This document shows positions 10,774 to 62,359 of a stretch of DNA of 64,000 nt, piece by piece. A program made the translations under genes and the position numbers. The notes below the pieces were generated by a model. The model ran no database searches. It saw nothing but the letters and a program-made list of their open reading frames with translations, and had not been told where the DNA came from. The DNA is from Escherichia coli (GTDB lineage Bacteria > Pseudomonadota > Gammaproteobacteria > Enterobacterales > Enterobacteriaceae), in NCBI RefSeq assembly GCF_024502345.1, contig NZ_JALDNN010000001.1; one strand, written 5' to 3'. Each line of letters begins with the position of its first letter. Positions within the stretch are counted from its first letter, which is position 1.

Positions 10774-13296
10774 ATGCTACAGATAATTGGTGCGTTAATT
10801 TTACTGGTAATCGGTTTTGTTATTATAAAAGCGTTGTTTAAGGCATCTCTCAATATTCTAGGTGTGATATTAGGATTGGGTGCATTGATTGTTGCAGGCC
10901 CACCTTTATTGGCGGGCTATATTGTAGAGCGCGTAACCTATGCGCTTCACTCACGTTGGCTGCTGGGTGTACCTCTTGCCATAGCAGGAATGGTGATTAG
11001 CTTTATGTGGGGACTTGATGGTAAACATATTGCCTACGAAGCTTATTCATTTGATTCAATGAAGTTTATTTTAACCGCTGCATTTGCCAGTGGCCTGCTT
11101 GCAGTACCTGTACAAACCAAGGCTATTCTACAAAACGGGCTTATACCAGCCGATATCAATGCCAAACTTAAAGAGTATTATTGCTGTTTTTATACATCTT
11201 ACTTTTTGATGGCCTGCTCTGCGGCTACACCGTTTATAGCCTGGCAATATAATATCTCATCTTCACTGATGTGGTGGACAGGATTGCTATACTGGATAGC
11301 AGCCTTACTGACACAGTTCTATGCGGCAAACCAAATTCAGGAACTCAAGAAGTTAACTAATGCCATCAATACAGGGTTAAATGAGCAAAAAGCGATCAAT
11401 AACCAACTTTGGCTGACGGAACTAAAAGAAGGAAGTAACCTCTCAGCAGAATTCGTAGAGACTATCTATCTTAAGTTGGTCTCACAGCATATTTTTCAGG
11501 GCGATACTCGAGAGCAGGATCTGGCTGGTGAAAACTGGCTTTTAAATGATGCCTGGTATGAAAGAAAGATGGCTGAATTTAATGAGCAGTTAAACAGTAA
11601 AATTGTACACTCATCAGATGAGCTAAGAAGCCTTTTTGGTAATAGGCTGAATTTACCCTCTGCTGCGAATGATGATCTCCTGAACCGTTATCTTGATGGT
11701 GGGAACTATTATTCTTTTTCGGATGGTCGAAAATTTGTCTCGTTTCACTATGTCGACGAGCTTTGTACCTGCACTTCATGCGGTTTGAGCGAGATTAAAA
11801 ACGCAAAACACCAGGACGGTTGTGGGAGCCAGGAATGGTATTGCTCTGATATTTGCCGGGAAACGGAAAAACTCTGCATTGAAATTCACAAGCGACCACA
11901 GGCTGAATTTATTTCCAGTGCAGCAACAAACGGTCTGATTCTCATGACGCTCCCGGAGGCCTGGAATACTAACGAAAAAATGTTTGCAGTGGGAGGACAA
12001 GGACATGGTTTTGCAGCCGAACGGGGAAATCATCTTACTGACAAAATCCAACTAAAAGATGCACATATTCTCGGTGATGATAATGCGAAAAATGGTGCAG
12101 ACAGGCTGGTTAACGGTTCAGAGATTCAGACCAAATACTGTGCAACCGCTGCACGTAGCGTCGGTGCTGGTTTTGACGGACAAAACGGTAATTATCGCTA
12201 TTATGACAGTAACGGAACCCCAATGCAGTTAGAGGTTCCGAAAGACCAGTATTCGAAAGCGCTTGAAACGATGGAGAACAAAATTCGCGATGGCAAAGTC
12301 CCCGGCGTTACCGATCCTGCAGAAGCCACAAAACTTGTACGTCAGGGACACCTGACTTATAGCCAGGCACAAAACATTACTAAGTTTGGCACGTTCGAAT
12401 CTATCACTTACGACATTGCGGAAGGATCTATCATCAGCCTCGCAGCTGGAGGTATCAGCTTCGGTCTGACAGCTTCTATTTTCTACCTCAATACCGGCGA
12501 TCGTAAGGCTGCGTTGCAAACGGCAGCAATACAGGCAGGTAAAACATTTACCCGCACACTGACAGTTTATGTGACGGTACAGCAATTACACCGTATCAGT
12601 GCCGTTCAGGGGTTACTTAAAAATATTGATTTTGCCGCTGCCAGCCCGACAGTTCGTAATGCGCTTCAACAGGGAGTCGGAGCTAACAATCTCAACTCCC
12701 TTAACAAGATGATGCGTGGCACACTGGTTACCTCTTTCGCACTGGTCGCCGTGACCACTGGTCCGGATATGATCAAAATGGTGCGAGGTCGTATTTCTGG
12801 GGCACAGTTTATAAAAAATCTGGCAGTTACTTCATCTGGTGTGGCTGGGGGTGCAATTGGTTCTATTGCTGGCGGAATGATGCTTAGTCCATTAGGTCCT
12901 TTCGGTGCTTTAGCAGGACGCGCAGCTGGTGGCTTGTTAGGCGGTATGATTGCCACAGCGATTTCCAAAAAAATAGCGGGTGCACTGGTTGAAGACGACC
13001 GAGTAAAAGTGCTGGCTCTCATCCAGGAACAGGTTACATGGCTTGCAACAAGTTTCATGCTTACAGCACACGAACTTGAAAACCTGAACGCGAATCTGGC
13101 AACAGTAATTGACCAAAAAACCCTGGAGGTTATCTTCGCCGCAAAAGAGCAAGACCGAGCAACGGCCAATATGCTGATTAAACCACTTGTAGTAAGTGTG
13201 GTTAAGCAACGACCGGTCCTGAGCTATGAACAATCGCAAATCTGCGAAATGGTCGATCAGCTTGATACATCGGTTTCATTATCTGCTGTTGCATAA
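10774..13296 (+). CDS. gene C: hypothetical 840-aa polytopic membrane protein with a Cys cluster and C-terminal Gly-zipper region
   Basis: About six predicted TM helices in residues 1-190; Cys cluster CTCTSCGLSEIKNAKHQDGCGSQEWYCSDIC; C-terminal GGAIGSIAGGMMLSPLGPFGALAGRAAGGLLGGMIATAIS; RBS AAGGA upstream. Confidence 0.65.
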   Translation: MLQIIGALILLVIGFVIIKALFKASLNILGVILGLGALIVAGPPLLAGYIVERVTYALHSRWLLGVPLAIAGMVISFMWGLDGKHIAYEAYSFDSMKFILTAAFASGLLAVPVQTKAILQNGLIPADINAKLKEYYCCFYTSYFLMACSAATPFIAWQYNISSSLMWWTGLLYWIAALLTQFYAANQIQELKKLTNAINTGLNEQKAINNQLWLTELKEGSNLSAEFVETIYLKLVSQHIFQGDTREQDLAGENWLLNDAWYERKMAEFNEQLNSKIVHSSDELRSLFGNRLNLPSAANDDLLNRYLDGGNYYSFSDGRKFVSFHYVDELCTCTSCGLSEIKNAKHQDGCGSQEWYCSDICRETEKLCIEIHKRPQAEFISSAATNGLILMTLPEAWNTNEKMFAVGGQGHGFAAERGNHLTDKIQLKDAHILGDDNAKNGADRLVNGSEIQTKYCATAARSVGAGFDGQNGNYRYYDSNGTPMQLEVPKDQYSKALETMENKIRDGKVPGVTDPAEATKLVRQGHLTYSQAQNITKFGTFESITYDIAEGSIISLAAGGISFGLTASIFYLNTGDRKAALQTAAIQAGKTFTRTLTVYVTVQQLHRISAVQGLLKNIDFAAASPTVRNALQQGVGANNLNSLNKMMRGTLVTSFALVAVTTGPDMIKMVRGRISGAQFIKNLAVTSSGVAGGAIGSIAGGMMLSPLGPFGALAGRAAGGLLGGMIATAISKKIAGALVEDDRVKVLALIQEQVTWLATSFMLTAHELENLNANLATVIDQKTLEVIFAAKEQDRATANMLIKPLVVSVVKQRPVLSYEQSQICEMVDQLDTSVSLSAVA

Positions 13297-13460
13297 TGAA
13301 AGGTATAAATTCATTACCATCGTGATATGGTGCTTCAGACGAAGCAAACTTAAATACCATTAACCCCATGATACTATTGTAAAATCCAAAAAAAATAATG
13401 GTAATCATCATAATGAACTGGTTCGAACAGACTGCGGAAGAGTATGGAGAATTAACAAAT

Positions 13461-13481
13461 AAGGGGGCATTTGCCCCCTTC
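13461..13481. terminator. GC-rich hairpin AAGGGGGC-ATTT-GCCCCCTT, probable terminator downstream of the arsC remnant / gene C
   Basis: Perfect 8-bp stem read directly; T-rich flank on the minus strand. Confidence 0.45.
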
Positions 13482-13485
13482 ATCA

Positions 13486-13640
13486 TTATTTCAGTCGTTT
13501 ACCTGCATCATCAACGACTTTCTCGCCGTCTTCCTTAGCAAATGCACCTTTTTGCGCATCCGGAAGAATATCCAGTACCACTTCGGAAGGACGGCACAGA
13601 CGCGTTCCCAATGGTGTCGCCACAATCGGGCGATTAATCA
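13486..13640 (-). pseudogene. arsC: arsC (arsenate reductase) remnant with internal deletion
   Basis: Minus-strand reading gives MSNITI then, after a gap, ...INRPIVVTPLGTRLCRPSEVVLDILPDAQKGAFAKEDGEKVVDDAGKRLK, matching recalled ArsC termini. Confidence 0.7.
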
Positions 13641-13676
13641 GGATCGGATAGTGATGTTGCTCATATCAATATCTCA

Positions 13677-13886
13677 TTACAAAGTGAAAGAGAGACGTAG
13701 CGCCAGCGCGGCCAGCGTTACAAACAGCACAGGCAGAGTCATGATGATCCCGGTGCGGAAATAGTATCCCCAGGTGATGGTCATGTTCTTCTGTGAAAAG
13801 ACATGCAGCCAGAGTAGCGTTGCCAGGCTACCAATAGGTGTAATTTTCGGCCCCAGATCGCAGCCAATCACGTTGGCATAAATCAT
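13677..13886 (-). pseudogene. arsB: arsB (arsenite efflux pump) 3'-terminal fragment
   Basis: ...[65 protein letters not shown] matches the recalled ArsB C-terminus. Confidence 0.7.
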
Positions 13887-16800
13887 CGCCTCTTTGATAA
13901 CGCATCATACTGCCAGCGGAATAACTCTCTTCGTCAATACGGCTCTCGCTGTACGCTTACCCATCTAGAGAGGTTTCAGGTGATTATCGATGTCAGAAGA
14001 CTGAATGATTCAGTCGTTTACTTTGAGATAGATCAGAGGTTTTTCACTACCTGTGTTCATCACATGGCTACGAATAGTAGAATCCAAGCATAAATTAACG
14101 CTTAGAAAAGTTGAGCTCATGAGATTCCACCCTGAAGGGCCTTCCATACCCGATATCCTCTTAGAACGCTGTGATACAGGTCGAGTTGTATTTCTCTGTG
14201 GCGCTGGGGTTTCATTACCTTCAGGGATGCCAAGCTTTGTAGAGCTTACCCAGCATGTAATTGAATACTTTGACCCACCACACGATTCAGAAATCATGGC
14301 AGCATTTCGCCCATGGCTTCACGACCAATCTTCAGCTAATGTCCCTCTCGACCAAATTTTCAACCTCCTACATCTGGAATATGGCAAGGATGAGGTGAAT
14401 GCTTTGGTATCAAAGCGTCTGGGGACTGCAAGAACTGATATAGAGATTGGACGTGAGCATGCCCTGATTAAAAGAATTTCCTCAAATCAGAGTGGTGTCC
14501 CACAGATTGTCACAACGAACTTTGACCGACTGTTCGAGGATAACCAAGCGCAAGATAATCTAACTCGATATGTGCCGCCAGCTTTCCCAAATCTGAATTT
14601 CGGTTCGACAATTGAGGGAATAACATATCTTCACGGCCGCCTGGTCGACGAAAATGCTGTAAACCATCCTTATGTGCTGAGCAGTGCAGACTTTGGAAGA
14701 GCATATCTTTCAGAAGGATGGGCGACCAATTTTATTAAGCTTCTTCTGGAACGATACATCGTTGTTTTGGTCGGTTATCAGGCAGAAGACCCACCAGTTA
14801 AATACCTCCTTCAGGGTCTCAATCATGATGGCCAGTATGATCGTTCCAGACTTTATGCATTTGATCGCGGCCTTGCCGAGGATATCGAAGCCAAATGGCG
14901 TGACAGAGGAGTTACAGCCATAGCCTATTCCGATCATCCAGCTCTTTGGAAGACTTTGGAAGCATGGGCTGAGCGAGTAGATGATCCACGTCGATGGCGA
15001 GCTTCTATTATCGCTAAAAGCCAGCAAGATCCGAAAGTTCTAGCACCGTATGAACGTGGTCAACTTGCCCATATACTTCGCACTACACAAGGTGCGAAAT
15101 TGTTCTCTGAAGCTGTTCCTCTTCCCCATCCAGAGTGGCTTTGTGTGATGGATGCAAATATTCGGTCAGCCAAACAGAAGAAAAGATACTACGAACTTGA
15201 TGACAATGATGCAGAGACCTTCGATCCACAAGAAGCTTATGGGCTTGATGACGATCTGCAAGATATCGCTGATGATGAACGTAAACGTGGAGTGAGTAAC
15301 GATAATCTCCTTGAATGGCGCGACGAAGATGATAACCCGTCAGATTACCATCGCTTGGCTGGATGTTTGGAGACAATGCCGAAACGATTGAGCCATCTCA
15401 TGGTCTGGTTCTGCAAATCTCTTGATAGCCCCGTGATGGCTTGGTGGGCTATCCGAAAAATCAGTATTCATCCTCTACTACTACAAAATATTGAACGCAA
15501 TATTGAGCATTCAACATCAATCCACAAACGCGCTCGTCAACTGTGGGGCTTAATTCTTGAACATCATAAAGATCCCCGCAATCGTCGTTATGACGTCGAT
15601 TGGTACGACTTAAAAGCTCGAATTACAAAACAAGGCTGGACAGCTGGTGTCTTACGAGAATTTCGTAGGGTAATGACACCCCGATTGGAAAAGAAGTTGC
15701 CGTATGGATTGGGTGAAGTCAGACCGCCAAGCGGCTCCTGGGAGGAAATTCAGTTCAGCGAATTTGGCCAATTTGAAGTTGTGTTCACCGAAAGACATGA
15801 TGACGATTTAGACGTACCTGACAATGTATTACTACAAGTATTTAATGCCTTAGAAGCGCAAATAATAACTGCCTCCGGAATGTTAGAGGATATTGATACG
15901 CACTACTTTCCAAGCCCAAGTTGTTATCCAGAACGTGCGGTTGAAGGAGAAGAACATTTCGCGAAAGGTGCGGAGGTATTAACTTGGTTTGTCCAACTTT
16001 TAGACCGAGTTGTTATGAAGTGGCCAGAATTGGCTAAGGCATACGTAACAACTTGGCCAGTTAAGGAGCCATTTTTCTTCCGAAAGCTTAGACTTTATGC
16101 ATTCAGTAAAAAAGGCGTCTTTGAGGCTGACCGTGTTGCCGAAGAGCTTTTGTCTTTGGATCAAAGTGGATTTTGGGACACAAATATTACCCGCGAACTT
16201 CTTTTTCTGCTCACTGATCGTTGGGAAGAATTCTCGCAAGAAAATCAGAATCGAATTATAGAGCATATATTAACCGGCCCGAACCATTTACTTTATTTGT
16301 CTGAGGAAGACATTCCAAAAGAAAGAGAGATATTAGCAGCTAGATACGCTCGTTATCTCGAACTAAACGGCTGTAAAGTAACCACTATTCATCGTGACCA
16401 ACTAACTGCGATGATTAAAAGAATTCCTGACTGGAATGATGGCTGGGCTACATCTGTTGTCATCAATTGGGGTTCACGGACAGGTTGGGTTCGTACAGAC
16501 GAAAAGCCAGATATAATCTTAGATCTTCCAGCAAACGAAATAATCCCAAAAGTAAAAGAGATACTTAAACGAGAGGATGATAGCTTTACTAGTAGGCAAC
16601 CCTTTGTCGGATTGATAAAAGAAAATCCGCGTAAAGCTTTGTCTGCACTCGCTATTGCAGGGAGAGGCGGTGATTACCCTAAGGAATTTTGGTCGCCAAT
16701 GATAAGTGAGTTACCTATAGATCTTAAACCAAGGGTGAGACGAGTATTCCTGAACCGAATTGTGCGATTGCCAGTTACAGCTTTGGTCGAGTTACGACAT

Positions 16801-17333
16801 ACATTAAGTAACTGGCTTGAACAAAATTTAGCTGCGACTCTTGAATTTGATGAGGATCTCGGGTGGGCAGTTTACGATCATGTCATAGCAGGCATACTGA
16901 GTGGTGGCGCCAGTGCAATACGGAGTAGTTTCGGAGAAGTTATCCGGAATGGAGAAGTTGTAATACAGTCTCGCCGCACGTTCAGTCATGCAATCAATGG
17001 TCCTGTCGGTAAATGTACTCAAGCGCTTTTTCAAGCAATGCCAAGTGAAGAGAAAAAAGCTGGTTCGCTTATTCCTTACTCTATTAAGTCTCGTATTGAA
17101 CATCTTTTTACTGCACCAGGAGAAGGAGCGGACCACGCTATAGCTATAACGTCTCGCAATCTAAATTGGCTAATGTTTGTTGATCCTGCATGGGTAAAGG
17201 AATGGCTTATACCCCTTTTGGATTTAAAACATCCTGCAGCAGAACCAGTATGGAATGGTTATCTTCAGTGCAATGCTATGCCTTCAATTGCAGTAGCTGA
17301 ACTTATTAAACCAGCTTTTCTTAACCTTATCCC

Positions 17334-18390
17334 GGCTTTGTTGAATAAATCAGATTTCGGGTAAGTCTCCCCCGTAGCGGGTTGTGTTTTCAGGCAATAC
17401 GCACGCTTTCAGGCATACCTGCTTTCGTCATTTTGTTCAGCGCTCGTACCAGGGCCATAGCCTCTGCAACCTGACCATCGTAGTCACGCAGTGTCAGTGA
17501 ACCCCCGAACAGCTGTTTTACCCGGTACATCGCCGTTTCCGCTATCGAGCGACGGTTGTAATCTGTTGTCCATTTCCACCGCGCATTACTCCCGGTCATT
17601 CGCTGATTAGCCACTGCACGGTTACGGTCTGCATATTCACCGGGCCAGTAACCCGCACCTTTTCGGGGAGGGATAAGCGCGCTGATTTTCTTACGCCGCA
17701 GTTCATCGTGACATAGCCGGGTATCGTAAGCGCCATCGGCGGCGGCTGACCTGATTTTCCGGTGGGTTTGCCGGATTAACCCGGGGAAGGCCTCTGAGTC
17801 CGTAACGTTGTTCAGCGACAGGTCAGCGCAGATGATTTCATGTGTTTTACTGTCAACGGCGAGATGCAGCTTACGCCAGATACGGCGGCGTTCCTGGCCA
17901 TGCTTTTTGACTTTCCACTCGCCTTCACCGAAGACCTTCAGCCCGGTGGAATCAATTACCAGGTGTGCGATTTCACCCCGGGTGGGCGTTTTGAAACTGA
18001 CATTAACCGACTTTGCCCGCCTGCTGACACAGCTGTAATCCGGGCAGCGTAGCGGAACGTTCATCAGAGAAAAAATGGAATCAATAAAGCCCTGCGCAGC
18101 GCGCAGGGTCAGCCTGAATACGCGTTTAATGACCAGCACAGTCGTGATGGCAAGGTCAGAATAGCGCTGAGGTCTGCCTCGTGAAGAAGGTGTTGCTGAC
18201 TCATACCAGGCCTGAATAGCTTCATCATCCAGCCAGAAAGTTATGGAGCCACGGTTGATGAGGGCTTTATTGTAGGTGGGCCAGTTGGTGATTTTGAACT
18301 TTTGCTTTGCCACGGAACGGTCTGCGTTGTCGGGAAGATACGTGATCTGATCCTTCAACTCAGCAAAAGTTCGATTTATTCAACAAAGCC
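17334..18390 (-). mobile_element. IS903-group element copy B (inverted), 9-bp TSD CCTTATCCC
   Basis: Terminal IRs at 17334..17351 and 18373..18390; CCTTATCCC at 17325..17333 and 18391..18399. Confidence 0.92.
17390..18358 (-). CDS. IS903-group transposase (322 aa), identical to copy A
   Basis: Identical translation to 6097..7065. Confidence 0.9.
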   Translation of the reverse strand: MKDQITYLPDNADRSVAKQKFKITNWPTYNKALINRGSITFWLDDEAIQAWYESATPSSRGRPQRYSDLAITTVLVIKRVFRLTLRAAQGFIDSIFSLMNVPLRCPDYSCVSRRAKSVNVSFKTPTRGEIAHLVIDSTGLKVFGEGEWKVKKHGQERRRIWRKLHLAVDSKTHEIICADLSLNNVTDSEAFPGLIRQTHRKIRSAAADGAYDTRLCHDELRRKKISALIPPRKGAGYWPGEYADRNRAVANQRMTGSNARWKWTTDYNRRSIAETAMYRVKQLFGGSLTLRDYDGQVAEAMALVRALNKMTKAGMPESVRIA

Positions 18391-19152
18391 CCTTATCCCT
18401 TGGATCGAATCTCTTTCTTGGGAAAAAGATTATTCAGTTCGAGCTTCGCAATGGCTTGGCTTAATGAGAATGTTTCACCCTGATGAGCCCTCCAGTCCTT
18501 CCAGGAATGAAATGCGCTCCATATTACGAGCATTATCTGACGAGGCTCGAAATCGTTTTATTTCCTGGTTAGGATTGGTCGGGCAGAAAAACGAGAGTGG
18601 CTGGGTTAAGTATGTGATCCCATTAATCAGAGAGGACTGGCCCAAAGAACGCCAATATAGAACCACGAGCTCTGTAAAAGCATGGATTGGTTTACTTGAC
18701 GATACTGGCGATAAGTTTCCGGAGGTTTACGATTCAGTAAAAACATACTTAGTACCAATCGAGACAATTGATCATTTGTTCTACAGATTCACTCGGGAGC
18801 TCGGTGGTAAAGGAGCAATTGCAGCTATTTTTCCAGAAACCACGCTTGATTTAATGGACAAAATAACACCACTGATATTCACGCGTACATCAGGAGAGCT
18901 GCAGAAGATTCTTGAGCTAATTGAAGATACAGATACAAGTCTGATCAAGGATTCTCGGTACTTACGGCTTATTGCACTGGTTGAGAAAAATTAGCATTTA
19001 TGGTTTTTTACCGTTGTTGATTACTCAGCAACACTTTTCGACATGCCGTAGCGCTTATCGCCTGTTCTTGACTAAGATGAGAAGCAGGCGTTAAAGTTTG
19101 GTTAAAGGAGAACCTCTAACCATTCCTTCTGGAAGAAATAATCTTTGGAGTA

Positions 19153-19881
19153 TTATTGAAATTGCTCAAATATACCATGCAACCCAATAAATTTTATTTT
19201 TAGTGCAGGATCATGCCTTAGAACAGTCTCAAGTGAGTTCCGCTCATAAATTATTGATTGTGCTTGTATTGAGCCGTTCCATGAAGGCAAAAGCAGTAAA
19301 GCAGATGTTTCCAAATCAATACCCCACCAATCGTTAACATAGCAATTTAAAAAATCAACAAGAGCCTTAATCGCAATAAAAGCATCTTTTTCGGTATATG
19401 TTTCAGGATCGAGGGATATACCTGATATATTACTTTTAGCTTGCTCGGAATTAATATTAGACTGGTGTTGATAAGCAATTTTTCCTTCACCCGGTTTAGT
19501 TTCTATTGTATCAGTGAAAATTTTAATCTTAGGATGCACCAATGCATTTCGTTGTGCTATTAATTCTTTTATTATTTGTGTTTGAGTGGTTCCACGAGGT
19601 AAAGACATGTCTTTATGCCATTGAAGAGTATAGTCAAATTTATCAAGTGAAGAGAACCTGTCAATTTGATCTTTTAACTTTTGCGTTATTTCTATAGAAG
19701 ATAAAAATGAGTTAGCTGCAGCCTCAATAGCGTAGTTAATTGAAAGTACACTTGATTTGGCAAGTGTTTTTTTGATGTGTGATTTTTTTGTTGCAGCTGA
19801 TAATTCATAAAGAGTTATTGCATCAGAAAAAAGCTCAAAAAAGCTGTTCTTGGTTATTTCAACTTTTCTTTTCACACGCAA
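19153..19881 (-). CDS. hypothetical 242-aa protein with HEPN-like R-x4-H motif (ELIAQRNALVHP)
   Basis: Motif read from the translation; last gene of an AT-rich three-gene minus-strand cluster. Confidence 0.55.
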   Translation of the reverse strand: MRVKRKVEITKNSFFELFSDAITLYELSAATKKSHIKKTLAKSSVLSINYAIEAAANSFLSSIEITQKLKDQIDRFSSLDKFDYTLQWHKDMSLPRGTTQTQIIKELIAQRNALVHPKIKIFTDTIETKPGEGKIAYQHQSNINSEQAKSNISGISLDPETYTEKDAFIAIKALVDFLNCYVNDWWGIDLETSALLLLPSWNGSIQAQSIIYERNSLETVLRHDPALKIKFIGLHGIFEQFQ

Positions 19882-19965
19882 CCCTCTGCATAAAAAAATA
19901 AAATCATATAGACAGAATACAATTTCCTATAATCTTTATATTCTACTAATTGTGGATATAAATGG

Positions 19966-21437
19966 CTATCGAGAATAAGAACTGGGTTTAGGAAAACCAC
20001 CTCTGACGACGACAACAACAATTGCAACTTGAGATTGACCTGTTGGATGAGTGAATACTTCAATATCATCCTCTATTACTCCCACCGGCGCTGATTTTGA
20101 CGTTGATTCCAGAACAACCAAAATACCGATACGCTTACCTAATCCAATGGCATAAGCTGCTGTTTGATCGAAATATTTTTGAAAATCCTTGGGAAAAAGA
20201 ACCTTATTATTTTCAACTTTTAGTTCTATCGAAATGTCTTCAAATGTGAGATCCGTTATCCCGCCAGCAGCCTCTGGATGGCCTTGTAATTTCTCGCCAA
20301 TCTCATTCCTACTTCTAAGCATTTCGGCTATTTTACGCTGAAATTTTTGCTCTGATGTGCCAGCAATAAATAAACTAGCTTTAAGAGCTTGTGCTGCAAC
20401 ATTTCCTAAGCCGCCAAGTATAACCATTGTATTAGCAATGTCATCTGAGTGTAATCCAGGGAAAGCTCGTAATATGTTACGAATTTTTATAAGATGCCTA
20501 TCGACGTTTGAAAATCCAGTTAATGGAGCTTGAGCGGAATCACTCCCTTCAAGTAGTAAGCGCCTATGTCCTACGATAGCAATATTTTGGCAATTACTTA
20601 AATTGTCAAACTCGGCAGCATATAGGAATTCGTAAGGTCTCGAGCCAAATGAATTTGCCACTTCCAAGACGACACGACCGATCCCCTTCAGTGTGAAGGG
20701 GCCTTCCCCCTCTGGTTTCTCAAATCTAAAATCAGGCAACCAGTCTCGCTCACGAGCATCAATTGTCACTGGCTTTAATGAGAGGAAATTTGCACTTTTT
20801 GGCCAATTTGAAACCCTGACCTCTATGTTAAGGTCATAAGCCGTACCCGGCTTAAGATAATTCCATTGCTGAGCTGGTTCCCCATCAATATCAAACTTTA
20901 GAAATGCAACTGTCGATTCTTGTGTTTTATTCTCTTTTGTCCCTTTACTAGATATTCCTTGCCTAATCCCCTCAATATTTTTATCGCGAAGATTTGCGAA
21001 TAAGAGTAGTGGCAATGACCAGCTTGTTAACTGGTCTTGTATTTGTTTTAATGAATCTAATTTACTGATTGAACGGACTTGCTCTATAAATTCATTAAAT
21101 TGTTTGTTCTCCGAGAGACTCGTCGTCATGTCGATCTCTGATGCTTTTAATTGTGCTGAATTTAAAAACCTTTGAGCATCAGTCTCAGCATTACGTATAG
21201 CATGTTTCCACTCAGCTAGAGTTACAAATATAGTCATTGCTATATAATATGCACGATATTGATCTTCAACATATCCCTGACCGAGCTCATCGAGCGTTTC
21301 ATTGAGCTTTTGACACGCTTCTTTAAGTTTCACCAAGTCATTCGGAATGGACTTGAGTGCACCATCCAACGCTGCTGCAATCTCAACCCTCGGAGAAAAA
21401 GCTTGGCGGAAAATCTCGAAATTTGGCTCGTTCTTCA
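19966..21437 (-). CDS. hypothetical about 490-aa protein with possible C-terminal PD-(D/E)xK nuclease-like motif (ITDLTFEDISIELK); start uncertain (21437 or 21480)
   Basis: ORF overlaps the upstream 857-aa gene by 55 bp or more; D...E-x-K pattern near the C-terminus. Confidence 0.5.
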
Positions 21438-23956
21438 TATTCTTTCTCCAACTCAGCCGTAAGACCATTCCATTTTTCAATTAAGTCATTATAGGGTTCG
21501 CAAACACTTATGGCATGTTCAATGCTAGCTGCTTCTGTAACTAAAGCAGCCTTAAGTTTCCATTGTGTATTTCTTTCATCATTTGGAATTTCTTCCAGTA
21601 GTTCCTTTAAACAAACATTTGCAGTTACGTTATCACCACACTTGCTTAACGCAGCCACGTACACTAATGCTTCAATAAATTGTTGAGGTTTAAATGGTTT
21701 CAGAGCATTGAATGCTTTTTGGAGATCGTCTTTACAATTTCGAAGCTCATCATGTGGCGCTCTTAATATCACTGAGATGCAGTCATCAATAGAAATACTG
21801 CGAGTATACTCATCCTGAATTGCTTTGAGTGCGACTTTGACAAAACCGGGAATATCATCAAAATGAAAACGCAATCGATTGATAGCATCATAAAGTGCAC
21901 TTCCTTCTAAAATTAATAATATATTAGAAAGAAGCAATCCAATTTTCCCCTTTCTCTCTTCATCTGATAAGCAAAGAGAAGAAAAAACGTCAATGCATTC
22001 TACAATGAAATTATCTTTTTTATCTTGTTGAATATAATAGCAAATTAGATTCCATAGCCGGGATCTCACAAGTCCCCGTTTCTCCTCAGGAAAAGATCTA
22101 CGGCTCAAAGCGCGAACAGCATACTGATGCACCATAACATATTGATCTAATAGCAAGACTGAATATGCTTCGAAGAATAAATCTGGGAAATTCTTCACTA
22201 AATCATAGGGAACATTTTCCCACGCTTGTACGGCACGTGCTCGAATCAATGTACTCTCATCCATAAGAGCACGATACCAATCGGAGAGCACTAGTGTTAG
22301 GCTGTCAATACCAGTTAATAACTTAGAAACATGGGCAATCATGTTCCCACGCATTTGAGTTTGTTCTTCTGGTAAGCTTCTATAGAGATGAAGAAAATCA
22401 TCGATTCCTTCACTCCCTCTAGATTTAGCTCCAATCGCAGCCCATTCAATCAATGCACCCTGTAAGCCATCAATAGCATTACGCTTATTACTTTTATCTA
22501 AATGATCTAGAAAACTCTCATTTATTTCTATGATTTTTTCTTTATTCAACGCCTCAAATTTCTCGCTTAGCGTTGCAGCCGCTCCGATCAAATCGTCAAA
22601 ATTATCAACTGCAAGCTCAGCAAATTCGTCCCAAGAGTGTCTAAAGAATTGTCCTGCATCATCCATGCTATCCTCTGGATTTTCCACAGCAGCCCAGAGC
22701 AAACGCCTAAAAGCTATTTTTTGTGTCTTTCCTGTTTTACTTTTTTTTCTATAGTTATTTCGCAGTACAGATCTGTAAGCTCTATTGGCCTCATGTCTCC
22801 CAATATCATCTTTGTCAGCAAGATAGGATTGAATAACTTTATCGCTTTCATCGGGAAATCTATCTAAGTATTTCGTAGCAGCCTCCCGAAGAAAGAAAAG
22901 AATGCTGCTATCTCTCCGCTCCTCCGGGAGTAGAGTCCGTCGACGCATCAGCTTAGCAAATATACTTCTAATATGTCTTAGAAGCAGCTCATCATCATCC
23001 GATGCAATAATTATCTCAATAGCAAATTGAAATTTTCCCCGGTGAGTATCTTTTATGTATTCATCAACAACATCACAGATATCAGCTTGTCTTTTTTTAA
23101 AAAGTGACTGAATGGGGCCTTTATTAAGTACTTTTCGCTCAAATGTGCCAATCATCATTCCAGGAGGAGATTCAACAGCCATTCTAACAAAGTGGTAAAG
23201 GACTTTTAAGAAATCATCTTCAGATAGATTCTCTGCTTCCAAGAGGATTGCTTCTATAGCTAGTGGACAATATTCGAAGTTGTTTATTAAATATACTGAA
23301 ATTGCCAGTTTTTCCGCTTGTGATAATTCAGTTCTTATTAAAGCTTTTGCTGCTGGCATTGAATATGGTAATTTCTCATGTAACACTGCAGGCAACAAGT
23401 GTTCAATTATTTTACTTGTAAATGTCTCAGGTGCCAGATTAGCAAGTTGTTCCAAACGGGGATCGTTGTTCTCTATATCCTCTTGATCGAGTTCATCAAG
23501 CAAATCAAGCACAAACGTTTCTTCTAGAGTAAGTGAAAGACGTAATACTGCTCGTTCTTGTTGTCTATTGAGCTGCTTCTGCTTTCTCTGCCTTTCTTCT
23601 TCTTTGCGAGCCAAATTTCGTTCTTCGGCAGATTTTTCTCTTGGGCCTACAAACTCTAAAATATTGGGAAATCCCACCGGAACCCGTTGATTACAATGTT
23701 TACAGTTCTGTTTATAGAAGCTGTAAACCGAGTCTTCCAGCAGCCAGCTAAGCATTGAACTTTGCTTAACAAATTTGCATTGAACTCCCATGTGACCAAT
23801 GGGTAACCCTGTTTCAGCCTCAATCATGCCTCTCCCCTCTGATCGAATGAATTCAGAGTGAGAACACCAGTTACTAAGTAGGTGTACAGCACGGAGATTT
23901 CGTTGACCAGCTTCGATTGCCTCTTCAAATCTTTTTTTATCTTCAAAATCATCCAT
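21383..23956 (-). CDS. hypothetical 857-aa protein with N-terminal Cys/His cluster and long helical repeat region
   Basis: N-terminal ...NWCSHSEF...HMGVQCKF...CKHCNQ...; very AT-rich coding region; no Walker A seen. Confidence 0.6.
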   Translation of the reverse strand: MDDFEDKKRFEEAIEAGQRNLRAVHLLSNWCSHSEFIRSEGRGMIEAETGLPIGHMGVQCKFVKQSSMLSWLLEDSVYSFYKQNCKHCNQRVPVGFPNILEFVGPREKSAEERNLARKEEERQRKQKQLNRQQERAVLRLSLTLEETFVLDLLDELDQEDIENNDPRLEQLANLAPETFTSKIIEHLLPAVLHEKLPYSMPAAKALIRTELSQAEKLAISVYLINNFEYCPLAIEAILLEAENLSEDDFLKVLYHFVRMAVESPPGMMIGTFERKVLNKGPIQSLFKKRQADICDVVDEYIKDTHRGKFQFAIEIIIASDDDELLLRHIRSIFAKLMRRRTLLPEERRDSSILFFLREAATKYLDRFPDESDKVIQSYLADKDDIGRHEANRAYRSVLRNNYRKKSKTGKTQKIAFRRLLWAAVENPEDSMDDAGQFFRHSWDEFAELAVDNFDDLIGAAATLSEKFEALNKEKIIEINESFLDHLDKSNKRNAIDGLQGALIEWAAIGAKSRGSEGIDDFLHLYRSLPEEQTQMRGNMIAHVSKLLTGIDSLTLVLSDWYRALMDESTLIRARAVQAWENVPYDLVKNFPDLFFEAYSVLLLDQYVMVHQYAVRALSRRSFPEEKRGLVRSRLWNLICYYIQQDKKDNFIVECIDVFSSLCLSDEERKGKIGLLLSNILLILEGSALYDAINRLRFHFDDIPGFVKVALKAIQDEYTRSISIDDCISVILRAPHDELRNCKDDLQKAFNALKPFKPQQFIEALVYVAALSKCGDNVTANVCLKELLEEIPNDERNTQWKLKAALVTEAASIEHAISVCEPYNDLIEKWNGLTAELEKEYEERAKFRDFPPSFFSEG

Positions 23957-25331
23957 TTAGATAACACCCTTATAAGGAACATGTACTCATCTAAAATGCT
24001 GTTACCGGATTATTATACCTAAAACAATGAATGCTGTGTATTATGAAATGTGATATAAGTCAATTAGTTACATATAAAAACCAACTCACATCCAAAAGGA
24101 TAGTATTTCGAGGTTTGTAGCATCATTAAATGTGAACTTATTTATCGCCCCCTCAAGTTAACTAATAAATAAGTTATAATTTACATATACTTCTGGAATT
24201 TAGAAACCTTATATCTAATAGTTGAGTAAGTTAATAATCAACATGAGTGTGATTCATAAAAAAAATAATTATTATTTTCAGCCCCTCCATTATGGAGGAG
24301 CAATAATAGTATAGTTTTCCTGTATTCCTAACGATCCAGTTAGGCTTAGAGAAATCTAATTATGAAGCACTCCTGAGAGCAACCCTTCCAACTTTATCAA
24401 TATAATCCGCATACCACTGCATCATCTCTCTCCTGCCTTCCAAATACAGCGCATGGTTGTACGTCCCGCGAATCGCATTCTTATCGACATGCGCAAGCTG
24501 GGTTTCAATCCATGCGGTATTGAACCCTTCCTCATGCAAAATCGTACTCATCGTGTGGCGGAAACCATGCCCCGTTACCTTCCCCGTGTACCCAATCCGC
24601 TTAAACACCTGATTAATACTCGCTTCGCTCATTGTTTTGCGGGGATCATTCCTCCCAGGAAACACCAGAGGATATTGCCCAGACATCACTTTGAGCTGCT
24701 GTACGATCTCCAGCGCTTGGGTAGAGAGGGGCACCAGGTGAGGCCGTTTCATCTTCATGCGCTCTGCAGGTATTTCCCACACCGCTTTTTCAAGATCAAA
24801 CTCACTCCAGAAAGCACCTCGAAGCTCACCGGTGCGAACCCCCGTAAGGATCAGCAAACGTGCGGCAAGAACAACCAGCGGGCTGCCTGTATAGCCAGAA
24901 AGAGCTTTAAAGAAATCTGGTAACTCCTCAACGGTAAGGAAGGGATAATGCTTCGATTCATGCCCTGACATCGCGCTGGTTAGATCCGCAGCCGGATTGT
25001 ATTCCGCACGACCGGTAACTATGGCGTAGCGAAAGACTTCGCTGCAGCGCTGGCGAACTTTCTTGGCCTTCTCTGTCGCACCACGGCTTTCCATTCGACG
25101 CAGTACATTCAACAGAACAAGAGGCTTAATTTCATTGACTGGCTGCTGACCGATATAGGGAAAAATATCTTTATTTAAAGCTTCGATAATGTCCGATGCA
25201 TACCCTTCTGACCATCTGCTCACCTTCGTACCGTGCCACTCAAGCGCCACAGACTGGAACGTATTATGATCTTACCCAGCAATAGTGGACACGCGGCTAA
25301 GTGAGTAAACTCTCAGTCAGAGGTGACTCAC

Positions 25332-25631
25332 ATGACAAAAACAGTATCAACCAGTAAAAAACCCCGTAAACAGCATTCGCCTGAATTTCGCAGTGAAGCC
25401 CTGAAGCTTGCTGAACGCATCGGTGTTACTGCCGCAGCCCGTGAACTCAGCCTGTATGAATCACAGCTCTACAACTGGCGCAGTAAACAGCAAAATCAGC
25501 AGACGTCTTCTGAACGTGAACTGGAGATGTCTACCGAGATTGCACGTCTCAAACGCCAGCTGGCAGAACGGGATGAAGAGCTGGCTATCCTCCAAAAGGC
25601 CGCGACATACTTCGCGAAGCGCCTGAAATGA
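25332..25631 (+). CDS. insE: IS3 OrfA (InsE)
   Basis: [54 protein letters not shown]... matches recalled IS3 InsE. Confidence 0.9.
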
Positions 25632-26494
25632 AGTATGTCTTTATTGAAAAACATCAGGCTGAGTTCAGCATCAAAGCAATGTGCCGCGTGCTCCGGGTGG
25701 CCCGCAGCGGCTGGTATACGTGGTGTCAGCGGCGGACAAGGATAAGCACGCGTCAGCAGTTCCGCCAACACTGCGACAGCGTTGTCCTCGCGGCTTTTAC
25801 CCGGTCAAAACAGCGTTACGGTGCCCCACGCCTGACGGATGAACTGCGTGCTCAGGGTTACCCCTTTAACGTAAAAACCGTGGCGGCAAGCCTGCGCCGT
25901 CAGGGACTGAGGGCAAAGGCCTCCCGGAAGTTCAGCCCGGTCAGCTACCGCGCACACGGCCTGCCTGTGTCAGAAAATCTGTTGGAGCAGGATTTTTACG
26001 CCAGTGGCCCGAACCAGAAGTGGGCAGGAGACATCACGTACTTACGTACAGATGAAGGCTGGCTGTATCTGGCAGTGGTCATTGACCTGTGGTCACGTGC
26101 CGTTATTGGCTGGTCAATGTCGCCACGCATGACGGCGCAACTGGCCTGCGATGCCCTGCAGATGGCGCTGTGGCGGCGTAAGAGGCCCCGGAACGTTATC
26201 GTTCACACGGACCGTGGAGGCCAGTACTGTTCAGCAGATTATCAGGCGCAACTGAAGCGGCATAATCTGCGTGGAAGTATGAGCGCAAAAGGTTGCTGCT
26301 ACGATAATGCCTGCGTGGAAAGCTTCTTTCATTCGCTGAAAGTGGAATGTATCCATGGAGAACACTTTATCAGCCGGGAAATAATGCGGGCAACGGTATT
26401 TAATTATATCGAATGTGATTACAATCGGTGGCGGCGGCACAGTTGGTGTGGCGGCCTCAGTCCGGAACAATTTGAAAACCAGAACCTCGCTTAG
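25628..26494 (+). CDS. insF: IS3 OrfB (InsF) transposase, DDE domain
   Basis: [32 protein letters not shown]... 288 aa; overlaps orfA in the -1 frame as in IS3-family elements. Confidence 0.9.
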
Positions 26495-26980
26495 GTCTGT
26501 GTCCATATTACGTGGGTAGGATCATTATTGAGCTGCACATCACGAACCAGCTTTTCTTCTTTCTTGGCAAACGATGGATCGATACCCTCGGCCAGCTTTT
26601 TCTTGGCTTCATCGCGTAGTGCCCTCGCTTGAGCAAGGGACACTGCCGGATAAACGCCAAAAGCCATACGCTTCTCTTTTCCATTGAAGCGATATTTCAT
26701 TCGCCAGTATCGAGAACCAGAGGGAACGACTTCAAGATACAAACCAGCACCATCTGCCAGCTTATAGGCTTTCTCTCTGGGTTTAGCTGCATCTACCTGT
26801 CGCGCATTTAGCTTCATTGGGGGCATCTCCCTGGACCGAACACAGAATGCCCCCACTTATGCCCCCAACTGTAACTTGATTCCGGTTGAGTCCAGTTGAT
26901 AACAGGAGATAAAATACGGGCTAGAAACCGCAGTATACGGGCTTTTAGTTGATTTCGGTAGACTTGGGAAGAGTTTGAAA

Positions 26981-27056
26981 TGGTGCCGATAATAGGAGTC
27001 GAACCTACGACCTTCGCATTACGAATGCGCTGCTCTACCAACTGAGCTATATCGGC
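26981..27056 (-). tRNA. thrW: tRNA-Thr (anticodon CGU), thrW
   Basis: Reverse complement GCCGATATAGCTCAGTTGGTAGAGCAGCGCATTCGTAATGCGAAGGTCGTAGGTTCGACTCCTATTATCGGCACCA. Confidence 0.9.
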
Positions 27057-27170: not shown

Positions 27171-28424
27171 TTACGCACGAATGGTGTAATCACCAATGCC
27201 GATCCACTTGTAAGTGGTCAGTGCTTCCAGCCCCATTGGGCCACGCGCGTGGAGTTTTTGTGTGCTTACCGCCACTTCCGCACCCAGACCAAACTGGCCG
27301 CCGTCGGTAAAACGCGTAGAGGCGTTAACGTAAACAGCGGACGAATCCACTTCGTTAACAAAACGCTGGGCGTTGCGCATATCGCGGGTCAGGATCGCAT
27401 CGGAGTGTTGTGTGCCGTGTTCACGAATATGGGCGATGGCATCGTCAAGATCGCTGACGATTTTGACGTTCAAATCTAATGACAGAAACTCATCGTCATA
27501 CTCTTCGGCTTTAACAGCAACCACCTTCGCAGGGCCTGCCTGCAACTGCGCCAGTGCAGCTGCATCTGCGTGTAATGTCACGCCGCTTTCCGCCATTTGT
27601 TTGCTTAATGCGGGCAGGAAGCTATCGGCGATGTTTTTATTCACCAGCAACGTTTCAACCGTATTACATGTGCTCGGACGCTGAGTTTTCGCGTTGACGA
27701 TCACTTTTAATGCTTCAGCGATCTCTACACTTTCATCAACGTAAATATGGCATACGCCTATACCACCTGTGATCACCGGGATTGTCGACTGTTCACGGCA
27801 CAGTTTATGCAAACCAGCGCCACCACGCGGGATCAGCATGTCGATGTATTTATCCATACGCAGCATTTCACTGACCAGCGCACGGTCAGGATTATCAATC
27901 GCCTGCACGGCACCCGCCGGTAAGCCGCAGGATTTCAGGGCGTCCTGAATCACCGCCACCGTTGCAGCGTTAGTGCGACACGTTTCTTTGCCACCGCGCA
28001 GGATCACCGCATTACCGGTTTTCAGGCACAGCGAAGCGACATCAACCGTCACGTTCGGGCGCGCTTCATAAATCACGCCAATAACCCCCAGCGGTACGCG
28101 ACGACGCTCAAGACGCAGGCCGCTGTCCAGTACGCCGCCATCGATTACCTGCCCCACCGGATCGGCGAGGTTGCACACCTGACGTACATCGTCGGCAATG
28201 CCTTTCAGCCGTGCGGGCGTCAGTGCCAGACGGTCAAGCATCGCTTCGCCAAGGCCATTGGCACGCGCGTCAGCAACATCCTGGGCGTTAGCGTTGAGGA
28301 TGATTTCGCTTTGTGCTTCCAGTTCATCGGCGATTTTTTCCAGCACGCGATTTTTTTCGCGGCTGGAGAGTTGCGCTAATTTATACGAGGCTTGCTTCGC
28401 GGCAATGCCCATTTGTTCCAGCAT
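27171..28424 (-). CDS. proA: gamma-glutamyl phosphate reductase
   Basis: 417-aa ORF recognised as ProA; synteny thrW-proA-proB. Confidence 0.95.
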
Positions 28425-35989: not shown

Positions 35990-36442
35990 TTAATGTTGCG
36001 GTTTATATCGCATATAAAAATTAGTAAACCACGCTCCCCGGCATTCAACGCGCTGCTGCTTAACTGTCTGAAAACCATAACGTTCAAAAAAGGGTTTTGC
36101 GGTTATGCTGGCATCTACCGTAAGTTCGGATTCAGACTTAATCAATGGTTTTAACAAGGCGCTGGCAACCCCGCGGCGGGTGTATTCAGGGTCAACAAAT
36201 AACATATCGATATAACGTTCAATGCGGGAAATAAAACCAACCGGTTGTGCATTAATGACGGCAACCCGCACTTGTGATTTCGCGAGTTTCTCCTTCCAGC
36301 GAGATTCGTCAATCTGCGCCCAGGCGGCAATTTGTTGTGGAGAATAGTGCTGACTGGAGGTCATCGTAACCGCTCTAATGAAAATAGCGCATAGTTGCTG
36401 AAAATCGCCAGGCTGATAGTTTCTTATTTGTATGTTATTCAT
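35990..36442 (-). CDS. yafP: GNAT-family acetyltransferase YafP
   Basis: 150-aa ORF recognised as YafP; overlaps dinB stop by 4 bp. Confidence 0.85.
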
Positions 36443-37494
36443 AATCCCAGCACCAGTTGTCTTTCCATTTGCGGATCCAGCAACGTCACATGCAGCCCCA
36501 CCAGTCGCACACCTCGCCCGCCGCGGCGTTCATCCCAGGTTTTACGCGCGGTGGCGATTAAGTCAGCTTTATTCAGCCTCGGCCAGACGTGCTCCTGGGT
36601 GGTTTGCTGAAAATCGTCGAACTTTAATTTCACCCCCTGGCGAGCAATCAGTAAATCAGGTTTTACCTTTGCCAGACGGCGTTCAAGTTCCGGATACAGC
36701 CGCTCGATAATCGCTTCACATTCAGACCAGTGATGAATATCTTCCGCCATCGTGCGTTCCACGCCGACGGATTTTCGCAACCGTTCGCTGTTAACATCGC
36801 GTTCGTCAATCCCCTGACTACGCTCCCACAAAATGCGGCCAAATTTGCCAAAGCGTTTAAGCAGCATCACCAGATCACACTTTTGTACATCACCGCAGGT
36901 CCGCAGCCCCATCGCTTCCAGTTTTGCCGCCGAGACTTTGCCGACGCCGGGGATTTTTGCCAGTGGTAAGGTTTGTAAAAATGCCGGAACTTCTGCCGGC
37001 GTAATCACAAACTGGCCGTTGGGTTTATTCATGTCGGAGGCGATTTTGGCGAGAAACTTTACTGGTGCCACGCCCGCAGACGCCGTCAGTTGCAGCTCGC
37101 TGAAAATCGTCTGGCGGATTTCCTGGGCGATGAGGGTCGCAGAACCGTGGCAATGGACGCTATCGGTGACATCGAGATAAGCCTCATCCAGTGACAACGG
37201 TTCAATGCGCGAAGTGTAGCGCGAGAAGATTTCACGGATATGATTTGAGGCTTCTTTGTAGGCGTCAAAGCGCCCCGGAAGCAAGGTGAGATGTGGGCAT
37301 AATTTGAGCGCCATCCCAGTAGGCATAGCGCTACGTACGCCAAATTTACGCGCGGGATAATTGGCGGTGCTGATCACCCCCCGACGTTCGCGGCTGCCGC
37401 CAATAGCAATAGGGATATCGCGCAGGGCGGGATTGTCGCGCATCTCCACCGCTGCGAAAAAGCAGTCCATATCCACATGAATGATTTTACGCAT
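36439..37494 (-). CDS. dinB: DNA polymerase IV
   Basis: [33 protein letters not shown]... 351 aa. Confidence 0.95.
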
Positions 37495-55202: not shown

Positions 55203-56138
55203 GTTGCTGGTTCTTTTACTTTGAGAGATTTTAATTGATGGGTATTGTTTCTACGACAATAAAGTTTTGACAAAGAAGCAAATAAAATGCATATCTTTCG
55301 ATTGTCACACATTGGAATATCGACAGAGCATTGATGATATTACGCAAAATATATTGCAGCCAAGTGAACTGACATTACGATCGAACACAAATGCAACATG
55401 ATGGATACTACCATTACATGTCGAGCTTGATTTTCCGTTTATTTCACGATTATCTCTTGATATTAACAGCTACGGACTTTTAAACAGATAAATCTCCCCG
55501 TACATCACCACAATATTATCCTTCGAAGTCCCGCAAAGCTCCGAAATATTTCGCGTCATTGGCCCTGAAAGCAATATCAAGACAGTGGGCAAAATAGCTT
55601 TCCTGACTGAGTTCACTGTGGGATGCAAATAAAGTTTCATCCTAACCCTAAAAACAGAGAGAAACGTCGCGCGCTCTCCTATTCATAAAAAATCCCTTTT
55701 ATATCAGTATGTTGTGAGCACTTACACCCGAGACTGGATCGTTTTGCCTTTCATGGGAGAATGATTAAGGGCGCTAAAGTATCATCCTAATTTTCGCCCA
55801 GGCTCGAAAAATACGGTAAATGGTGAAAATAAAGATTCATCCTTTTCCGATGTTGCCCGTTCCAACACGTAAGCAGTCAGTCAGAAAAAACACATAGATC
55901 CAATCCCTAGCGAGCATTGAGCTCTCTCATCCGTGCCAACTGCTCCAACCCTTGGACGCCCTAAATGCTTACCCAAAAAAATCAACACCTTCTTTTAAAA
56001 ACACAATCAAAAATGACACCCTTATATCCATTTAACCTAAACAGCCTTCCCCCCACTGCACTAGCTAGGGCTCGTAGTTCGGCGCAAGGCTGAAGTCGCT
56101 TGGCTGCTTCGCTGTGCAGATCCATGACCCACTTTCCA

Positions 56139-57302: not shown

Positions 57303-57309
57303 GTTGAAA

Positions 57310-58299
57310 TCAGCGCCAAAGGCCGCCGGTGCGCCAGCGTGGCGGACGTGGTGATACGGTCACCTCGGGGACGAAACGGGCCGATGGAAACGGCGGCATC
57401 GCGGGCGGCGGAGCAAGTTCCAGCAAGCGCTCAATGCGTTCAGCCGTCGCCGGATGCGTGCGCAACCAGGAGGGTTCCGGATTGCCCCATCCGGGCAGCA
57501 GCCAGGCGCGCCAGGAGCGGCTCACCCGCTCGATCTTGGCGAGCGCCGAGGCCAGCCCGTGCGGGTCGCCGGTCAATTCGGCAGCGAGCCGGTCGGCGTC
57601 GAATTCGCGCACCCTGGACAAGCCCAACTGAGCCAGCAAGGCCAGCTGTGGCGCGACCGCCAGTAGAAGCAACGCGGGCCAATTGACTTCCGCGACTCCA
57701 AGCAGCAGCGCTGGCAAGCTGAGCACGATCGCAAGCTGCCCCAGCAGGGCCAGCAGATGGGTCAGCCGGCTGATGGAATCGGCCAGGCCCATGACACGCA
57801 AATCCTCGTTCGCAATATGCGCGATTTCGTGGCCGAGCACGCCGGTCAACTCGCGGGGCGTGAGGCTACGCAGCAGGCCGTCGGTCAGCGCGATGGCCGC
57901 GTGATGCTTCGAACCGGTGGCGAAGGCGTTGACGACCCCGCTGGGCACGTAGTGCGGTACCGGCACGGCAGGCAGCCCGGCCCGCGCCGCCAGTTCGCGC
58001 AACACAGCCCAAAGATCGGGCGCTTCATCCGGGTACAGGGGGCGTGCGCCATACAGCCGCAAGGTCAGTCCGGAGGCGGCCGCCGGTTCGAGCAGCAGGG
58101 TGAACCCCGCGGCCGCAAGCGCCAGCCACAGCCCGCCGTCACCCAACAGCAGGCTGCCAGCGACGGCGGCAATCCCGAGCAGGGTCAGCACCAACAGCGC
58201 GGTTTGCAGGCGATTGAGCCAGCGATGCCGCGCGCCGACATCCTGCGCGTGGCGCAGATCACGACTGATCATCTGAGCGTTCCCCGGCGGTCCGGTCAT
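57310..58299 (-). CDS. M48-family zinc metalloprotease (HtpX-like)
   Basis: HEIAH zinc-binding motif in GHEIAHIANED; TM segments. Confidence 0.75.
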   Translation of the reverse strand: MTGPPGNAQMISRDLRHAQDVGARHRWLNRLQTALLVLTLLGIAAVAGSLLLGDGGLWLALAAAGFTLLLEPAAASGLTLRLYGARPLYPDEAPDLWAVLRELAARAGLPAVPVPHYVPSGVVNAFATGSKHHAAIALTDGLLRSLTPRELTGVLGHEIAHIANEDLRVMGLADSISRLTHLLALLGQLAIVLSLPALLLGVAEVNWPALLLLAVAPQLALLAQLGLSRVREFDADRLAAELTGDPHGLASALAKIERVSRSWRAWLLPGWGNPEPSWLRTHPATAERIERLLELAPPPAMPPFPSARFVPEVTVSPRPPRWRTGGLWR

Positions 58300-62342: not shown

Positions 62343-62359
62343 GGTGGGATTCCTTGTGT

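Follow-up and report, generated by a model that had tools for sequence, protein, structure and literature searches.

The locus beside thrW raises the question of whether an Escherichia coli island whose integrase gene has been interrupted by an insertion sequence can still leave the chromosome by its own means. The window, i.e., the whole 64-kb stretch of DNA that was analyzed, contains the tRNA gene, the two parts of the integrase gene and most of the island. Very probably, this is a thrW island of about 30.9 kb with a CP4-57-like backbone and a predicted defence cargo, whose P4-family integrase has been inactivated very recently by IS3, with loss of the island's own excision.

The thrW end of the island

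ARAGORN found a single tRNA gene in the 64-kb window, a tRNA-Thr(CGT) that matches the E. coli K-12 thrW gene at every base. Next come proA (27171..28424) and proB, which is the K-12 order. The earlier note on this DNA had called thrW a classic tRNA hotspot and, indeed, thrW is listed among the most-used tRNA integration targets (PMC7545054). The features at this end are as follows.

26981..27056, minus strand: thrW, complete tRNA-Thr(CGT) (ARAGORN; same sequence as K-12 thrW)
26979..26997, minus strand: tRNA-proximal core attachment site, TCCTATTATCGGCACCATT on the tRNA strand, made up of the final 17 nt of thrW plus 2 nt
26848..26867, minus strand: two tandem arm-type repeats, GTTGGGGGCATAA and GTGGGGGCATTC on the tRNA strand
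26818..26825, plus strand: inverted arm-type repeat with the GGGGGCA motif, directly upstream of the integrase start codon
26525..26817, minus strand: integrase N-terminal fragment, codons 1-98, arm DNA-binding domain (Arm-DNA-bind_3; PRK09692)
25267..26524, plus strand: complete IS3, 1258 bp (terminal inverted repeats, orfA/orfB, TTA duplication)
25323..25631, plus strand: IS3 orfA (HTH_Tnp_1 domain)
25628..26494, plus strand: IS3 orfB (rve DDE domains)
24360..25266, minus strand: integrase C-terminal fragment, codons 98-398, central and catalytic domains (Pfam; catalytic residues)

The integrase gene starts with an ATG at 26817, on the same strand as thrW and 163 nt past the 3' end of the tRNA gene, and the frame reads away from the tRNA, as had been noted earlier. 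Between thrW and this start codon, matches to TGCCCCCA were found at 26848-55 and 26860-67. Across the whole window, this 8-mer arm motif was observed 5 times with 2.3 occurrences expected, a count that is not significant on its own; the argument for arm repeats is therefore based on their clustering and their match to P4 rather than on the window-wide count. Minus one G, the near core block is seen again at the far end of the island, in E. coli PSJ-29 as well as in contigs from the lineage to which the window belongs.

A P4-type integrase gene split by IS3

Deletion of IS3 and one TTA in silico gave a single open frame of exactly 398 aa from the ATG at 26817 (401 aa from an alternative upstream ATG), matching the in-frame protein of about 398 aa that had been predicted from the two halves. 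This rejoined integrase was found to be identical to WP_060659280.1, the intact integrase encoded at thrW in E. coli PSJ-29, over 398/398 amino acids and 1197/1197 nucleotides. The two halves, on whose alignment as one integrase the earlier note had staked its reading, thus do represent one protein, and strains with an intact integrase at thrW, the comparison that it had proposed, do exist.

The rejoined protein contains the Pfam domains Arm-DNA-bind_3 (residues 3-88), Phage_int_M (residues 100-194, a central SAM-like domain) and Phage_integrase (residues 206-370), which are the same three families that are found in P4 Int, and BLASTP aligned the two proteins over their full length with 44% identity (405 columns, E 2e-120). 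Catalytic residues R241, K270, H330, R333, H356 and Y366 are present, all of them on the C-terminal fragment, and at R241, H330, R333, H356 and Y366 the alignment shows the same residue in P4 Int. The annotated arm repeats of P4 attP are TTGGGGGCATCT, TTGGGGGCATAA, AAGGGGGCATAT and GTGGGGGCACAA, together with an inverted copy at the int start; the arm repeats in the window show the P4 attP motif and tandem layout (compare TTGGGGGCATCT/TTGGGGGCATAA), and the inverted repeat occupies the same position relative to the int start in P4 as in the window. Integration is at the extreme thrW 3' end, and both PSJ-29 and the lineage contigs show a second copy of the core (18/19 nt) at the opposite end of the island. 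The assignment of the integrase to the P4 type, which had been made from the window sequence, is thus well supported by identity, domains and arm repeats. K-12 IntF, which shares the thrW site, was considered as nearest relative and was rejected; the two proteins are unrelated beyond the fold, with 22% identity over a local stretch.

The satellite phage P4 is similar to the island in the three Int domains, in integration at a tRNA 3' end, in the presence of an AlpA-family partner gene and in the arrangement of the GGGGGCA arm repeats, of which one tandem pair lies on either side and a further, inverted copy lies at the int start. The P4 target, however, is leuX rather than thrW and the core sequences differ; in addition, the part of the island that was seen lacks the alpha primase, sid, delta and psu genes (replication and capsid-hijack genes), and the integrase in the window is split by IS3.

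The interrupting element is a complete IS3 of 1258 bp. Its terminal inverted repeats, TGATC(T/C)TACCCA..., are imperfect; orfA and orfB overlap and are open in the 0 and -1 frames; and the 3-bp target duplication TTA is found at 25264-25266 and 26525-26527, as the earlier note had described. The element shares 99.6% identity with a copy that is labelled in RefSeq as 'IS3-like element IS3 family transposase, programmed frameshift'. Compared with E. coli IS3 (IS3 family), the window copy agrees in length, repeats, orfs, rve domain and 3-bp duplication, and there is no notable difference.

IS3 interrupts the gene after codon 98, precisely in the linker that connects the arm-binding domain to the core-binding and catalytic domains. 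The open reading frame of the N-terminal fragment extends into IS3 as far as a stop at 26491, giving a product of 108 aa of which the last ten residues are encoded by IS3; this fragment matches NCBIfam PRK09692 (positions 8-95) and Pfam Arm-DNA-bind_3 (residues 3-88). For the C-terminal fragment, the only start of its own is an internal GTG at 25250, and a promoter scan found no promoter-like site reading out of IS3 toward it.

Extent of the island and its far attachment site

No repeat of the thrW 3' end was found within the window with k-mers of 11 to 20 nt and the far site was, therefore, sought outside. If the inserted IS copies, of which the island as a whole has five, are disregarded, positions 1..24400 of the window show 99.8-100% identity to the PSJ-29 thrW island. 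Beyond the point that corresponds to window position 1, the PSJ-29 island continues with DUF932, WYL, Ag43, antirestriction, RadC-like, DUF987 and YeeU/CbtA genes; its far site is TCCTATTATC-GCACCATT, preceded by the tandem pair GTGGGGGCACAA AAGGGGGCATTT, and beyond this site lies DNA that is found after ptwF in K-12.

Contigs of the window's own lineage were located by exact-protein look-up with the GTPase encoded at 150..1013. Three of these contigs (L040-L042) are 99.96-100% identical to window positions 1..2490, including the IS5 junction (50-58 nt of IS5), and carry the same far core, with the tandem arm pair, 3933-3950 nt to the left of window position 1. Past the window edge, the lineage contigs carry DUF932, antirestriction, RadC-like, DUF987 and CbeA/CbtA genes, with most of Ag43 deleted. 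Past the far core, they continue with ykfI, yafW, ykfH, ykfG, yafX, ykfF and ykfB, at 99.8% identity to K-12; judged by its sequence, a CP4-6-like element sits in tandem beyond the far core of the island. A copy of the thrW 3' end, which the earlier note had proposed to look for left of the window, is thus present 3.93-3.95 kb beyond position 1 in these contigs, and the island measures about 30.9 kb in this lineage, of which the five IS copies account for 5.9 kb. The proposal that an integrase delimits the entire 27-kb accessory region as one element is not supported in that form, as the island runs off the left edge of the window and is then followed by the CP4-6-like tandem element.

Compared with thrW, one G is missing from the far core in PSJ-29 as well as in the window lineage, and the DNA beyond it differs between the two. 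Decay was considered as the origin of this one-base gap and was rejected because the gap is shared by far sites in two distinct chromosomal contexts, which makes it more likely that the half-site is the element's own. The far half-site thus appears to belong to the element, with strand exchange probably taking place within GCACCATT.

Use of thrW is layered, in that the P4-type island uses the last ~19 nt and the CP4-6-type element uses 49 nt. A further thrW element, which carries phage genes and was seen in some samples, uses 46-47 nt.

A second interrupted mobility gene and the predicted defence cargo

The following features were identified in the body of the island.

1..24359: island body in the window (99.8-100% identical to the PSJ-29 island besides the IS; Pfam, PADLOC)
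150..1013, minus strand: YfjP/YkfA-like GTPase
2410..3815, plus strand: AlpA/Vis-family HTH gene, split by IS5 after codon 7 (Pfam PF05930; when rejoined, the same as the PSJ-29 gene)
2432..3626: IS5-like element with target duplication TTAA, splitting the AlpA/Vis-like gene
4185..4799: YagK/YfjJ-type gene
5105..5983: WYL regulator
17334..18390: IS903-like element, splitting Dsr1
Within the island body: PDC-M09A (split by two IS) and PDC-M09B
Within the island body: 840-aa gene, arsC remnant and 240-aa gene
Within the island body: Olokun OloB and OloA, uninterrupted

The AlpA/Vis-like gene encodes 68 aa in PSJ-29, and the window copy, when rejoined, is identical to the PSJ-29 copy. P4 ORF88 (excisionase/Vis) matches PF05930, i.e., it belongs to the same family, and the island protein is likely to be the excision factor and int regulator of the island. 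On the downstream side of IS5, the AlpA-like HTH domain (residues 19-59) is retained, together with an internal Met at codon 15, and this remnant might be expressed from an IS-borne promoter.

PADLOC models predict that the cargo functions in anti-phage defence, with matches to Olokun (OloA, 2.9e-77; OloB, 4.6e-58), Dsr1 (8.9e-86) and the candidate system PDC-M09 (PDC-M09A, 2.4e-120; PDC-M09B, 2.9e-214). PDC-M09A is interrupted by an IS903-like copy and by an IS110-family element. Three known or candidate defence systems were thus detected, and in this strain Olokun is the only one that is still uninterrupted. Overall, five IS copies were found in the 27 kb of island, and none in the adjoining 20 kb, a stretch of core genes that is collinear with PSJ-29. 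This difference indicates that the integrase knock-out reflects general IS erosion of the accessory region rather than a targeted event.

Distribution of the split allele

A 160-bp probe spanning the IS3/integrase junction had no match in 5426 complete RefSeq E. coli genomes, and exact-pattern scans for the IS5/alpA junction in genome contigs and for the IS3/int junction in metagenome contigs gave no matches. The split allele was recovered by exact-protein look-ups rather than by these exact-pattern scans; the IS3-fused stub of 108 aa was found in at least 15 independent public contigs (metagenome contigs), and the 296-aa open reading frame of the C-terminal fragment was found in at least 13. 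The 20 contigs that were compared, ten for each fragment, agree with the window completely or almost completely; one of them has a single mismatch. As the contigs carrying the C-terminal fragment span the region from IS3 to the IS903-like copy in Dsr1, they share the IS configuration of the window. From these contig sequences, the split allele is real and is inherited in a repeatedly sampled lineage. The intact allele is far commoner (142 index blocks), and a full-length relative (~90% nucleotide identity or better) was found in 213 of the 5426 complete genomes. Ten other genome matches, in two groups of five, were considered as instances of the same knock-out and set aside; in the two that were inspected, IS3 lies beside a related or different integrase.

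Probable fixation of the island and alternative explanations

The island would have become fixed as follows. IS3 entered the gene after codon 98, between the arm-binding domain and the core-binding and catalytic domains, and generated the 3-bp duplication that is typical of it. From the native promoter and start codon, nothing beyond a 108-aa arm-domain stub can now be made, and the catalytic part of 300 residues is deprived of its promoter and start codon. The AlpA/Vis-like gene has additionally been cut by IS5. With both genes broken, the proteins for recombining the two att sites would no longer be made, even though the near and far attachment sites themselves look intact, and the island would be inherited as a fixed chromosomal segment. 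The earlier suggestion that the island is 'probably fixed in place' is strengthened by this hit in a second mobility gene, and the recurrence of the IS-marked configuration across samples is consistent with vertical inheritance; loss of excision thus seems probable. The picture is one of IS-driven decay of an accessory region and calls for no special mechanism.

One way in which the island could still be mobile is through a related P4-type integrase provided in trans, by the genome, a satellite or a phage, and acting on the conserved arm and core sites. Several P4-like integrases are common in E. coli genomes. The sites at which such an enzyme would act, i.e., the near core and arms in the window and the far core and tandem arms in the lineage contigs, look intact, and the GGGGGCA arm motif is common even to P4. 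Furthermore, in some strains (L029, L035) an identical integrase adjoins ycgV/dhaR, and in strain 2018-05-2CC, which shows this ycgV/dhaR context, just a 49-nt piece of thrW lies beside the integrase gene. On the other hand, tyrosine integrases usually accept a narrow range of core sites, the AlpA/Vis-like gene is broken too and no second integrase of the same type was found within the 64-kb window. The occurrence of the same IS-marked configuration in many samples is also what would be expected under stable vertical inheritance, and mobilization in trans is, therefore, unlikely. The possibility that the placement of IS3 is an assembly artefact, with a repeat misjoined into the integrase gene, was also considered since repeats are a frequent cause of misassembly and E. 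coli carries several copies of IS3 (the region with IS3 in it matched a median of 5 places per genome). This has next to no probability and is, for practical purposes, refuted; it is contradicted by the 3-bp target duplication and the exact in-frame restoration, and both junctions are present independently in the 20 short-read contigs, which were obtained from many samples and match the window perfectly or almost perfectly.

The split gene could also have retained a function if the 108-aa stub, expressed from the native promoter in attL, bound to the arm sites as a repressor of that promoter or as a dominant-negative blocker of any integrase acting in trans. The stub retains the whole Arm-DNA-bind_3 domain, the native start and the upstream region, and an inverted arm repeat is found directly upstream of the int start codon. 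Negative autoregulation through attL has been described for tRNA-adjacent integrase genes that are oriented like the tRNA (PMC2951348), which also counts in favor of such a role. The ten foreign residues may, however, make the stub unstable, and identity to the intact allele reflects recency and not selection; this role is highly improbable. The same low standing applies to the specific proposal that IS3 left a stably expressed stub which sits on the attL and attR arms and shields the island from related P4-type integrases. If this were true, the IS would have created an active anchor for a defence island, and this in a lineage present in many metagenome samples. Inactivation of the integrase, with loss of excision, is the reading that we retain.

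Comparison with other islands and significance

In addition to its P4-type integrase, the island shows similarities to the K-12 elements CP4-57 (at ssrA) and CP4-6 (at thrW), including a YfjP/YkfA-type GTPase in the window and DUF932, antirestriction, RadC-like, DUF987 and CbeA/CbtA genes in the lineage contigs. The layout of CP4-57, in which the tRNA gene is followed by int and alpA and the other end carries the toxin gene, is also that of the island. With CP4-6 it shares the thrW site; unlike in the island, IntF of K-12 is located at the far end of CP4-6, which has a thrW repeat of 49 nt compared to ~19 nt for the island, and in the window lineage the CP4-6-like element lies past the island, in tandem. 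Integrase-only defence islands at E. coli integration hotspots have been described (Hochhauser et al. 2023, PMC10121019). The island resembles these in that it has an integrase beside the hotspot, lacks transfer genes and carries a predicted defence cargo (Olokun, Dsr1 and the candidate PDC-M09); it differs from them in that two of its three defence modules and both of its mobility genes are interrupted by IS.

The integrase knock-out is real, well explained and ordinary, and what the earlier note observed is right in every detail, including the length of the rejoined protein. Its importance reaches little beyond annotation, as it adds one more route by which a tRNA-linked defence island becomes fixed in the chromosome. 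What it does provide is a cleanly dated case, with zero substitutions since the insertion, an intact allele in sister strains and the split allele in many metagenome samples.

Genes of the island and their interruption

Three defence systems, known or candidate, were detected on the island, and Olokun is the only one of them that appears free of interruptions. The genes considered here are as follows (window coordinates).

2410-3815, + strand: AlpA/Vis-family gene, with an IS5-like insertion that splits it after codon 7
6018-9292, + strand: PDC-M09A, candidate defence gene, with two IS interruptions
9292-10737: PDC-M09B, intact
10774-13296: gene encoding an 840-aa protein, intact
14053-18994, + strand: Dsr1-type SIR2 defence gene, split by an IS903-like element
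19153-23956, - strand: Olokun genes OloA and OloB, for proteins of 857 aa and about 490 aa, respectively, which appear intact
Within 19153-23956, - strand: 240-aa gene with no family match, which appears intact

The Dsr1-type gene, which encodes 1291 aa in PSJ-29, a strain carrying a near-identical island, is split here by an IS903-like copy at 17334-18390 that is flanked by a 9-bp duplication (CCTTATCCC). PDC-M09A was found to carry another IS903-like element at 6065-7121, with the target site duplication TCTCAAAAG, as well as an IS110-family element at 7488-8849, which has no duplication. The IS5-like element in the AlpA/Vis-family gene (2432-3626, target site duplication TTAA) is a second blow to the mobility functions of the island.

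Two losses were also observed relative to PSJ-29. A deletion bounded by 7-bp repeats removes 247 bp from an arsC remnant at approximately 13480-13700 (- strand) and shifts the frame, and the yafN-yafO toxin-antitoxin pair, which in PSJ-29 occupies 752 bp between dinB and yafP, is missing at approximately 36439-36445.

Block matching a heat-resistance locus at the right end of the window

An 8-kb block with a GC content of 0.62-0.68, well over the E. coli average, was found at the right end of the window. This block matches the transmissible heat-resistance locus (tLST/LHR), with 100% identity to E. coli G3/10, and contains an IS21 element; in the matching record, Trx-GI is part of tLST/LHR.

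55600-64000: genes for an S1C (DegP-like) protease, HtpX, PsiE and a KefB-like antiporter

Neighbouring elements and other locations of the integrase

Left of the window, a contig of the same lineage (L040, 6415-9704) carries a CP4-6-like element, ykfI to ykfB, in tandem with the island past its far site; this element is 99.8% identical to that of K-12, and its gene order is inverted relative to the island. In the far attachment core, the same single base is missing in each of two distinct chromosomal settings.

An identical integrase was found near ycgV/dhaR, not proA, in several strains: 2018-05-2CC (L005, 9557-9800) and the strains of two further listed contigs (L029 and L035). In 2018-05-2CC, the thrW piece beside the integrase comprises only 49 nt. 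These locations suggest either an additional element in tandem or an extensive rearrangement.

The ten metagenome contigs displayed with the IS3-fused stub of the integrase (L008-L017) all diverge from the window within the thrW anticodon loop, at the junction 27026/27027. Past this junction, the next feature is a 1484-aa ORF with no Pfam match, followed in the longer contigs by phage tail-fibre, lysozyme and terminase genes. These samples carry another element beside the island, on its tRNA side; accordingly, either thrW remained open to integration after the island was crippled or the element was lost in the strain of the window.
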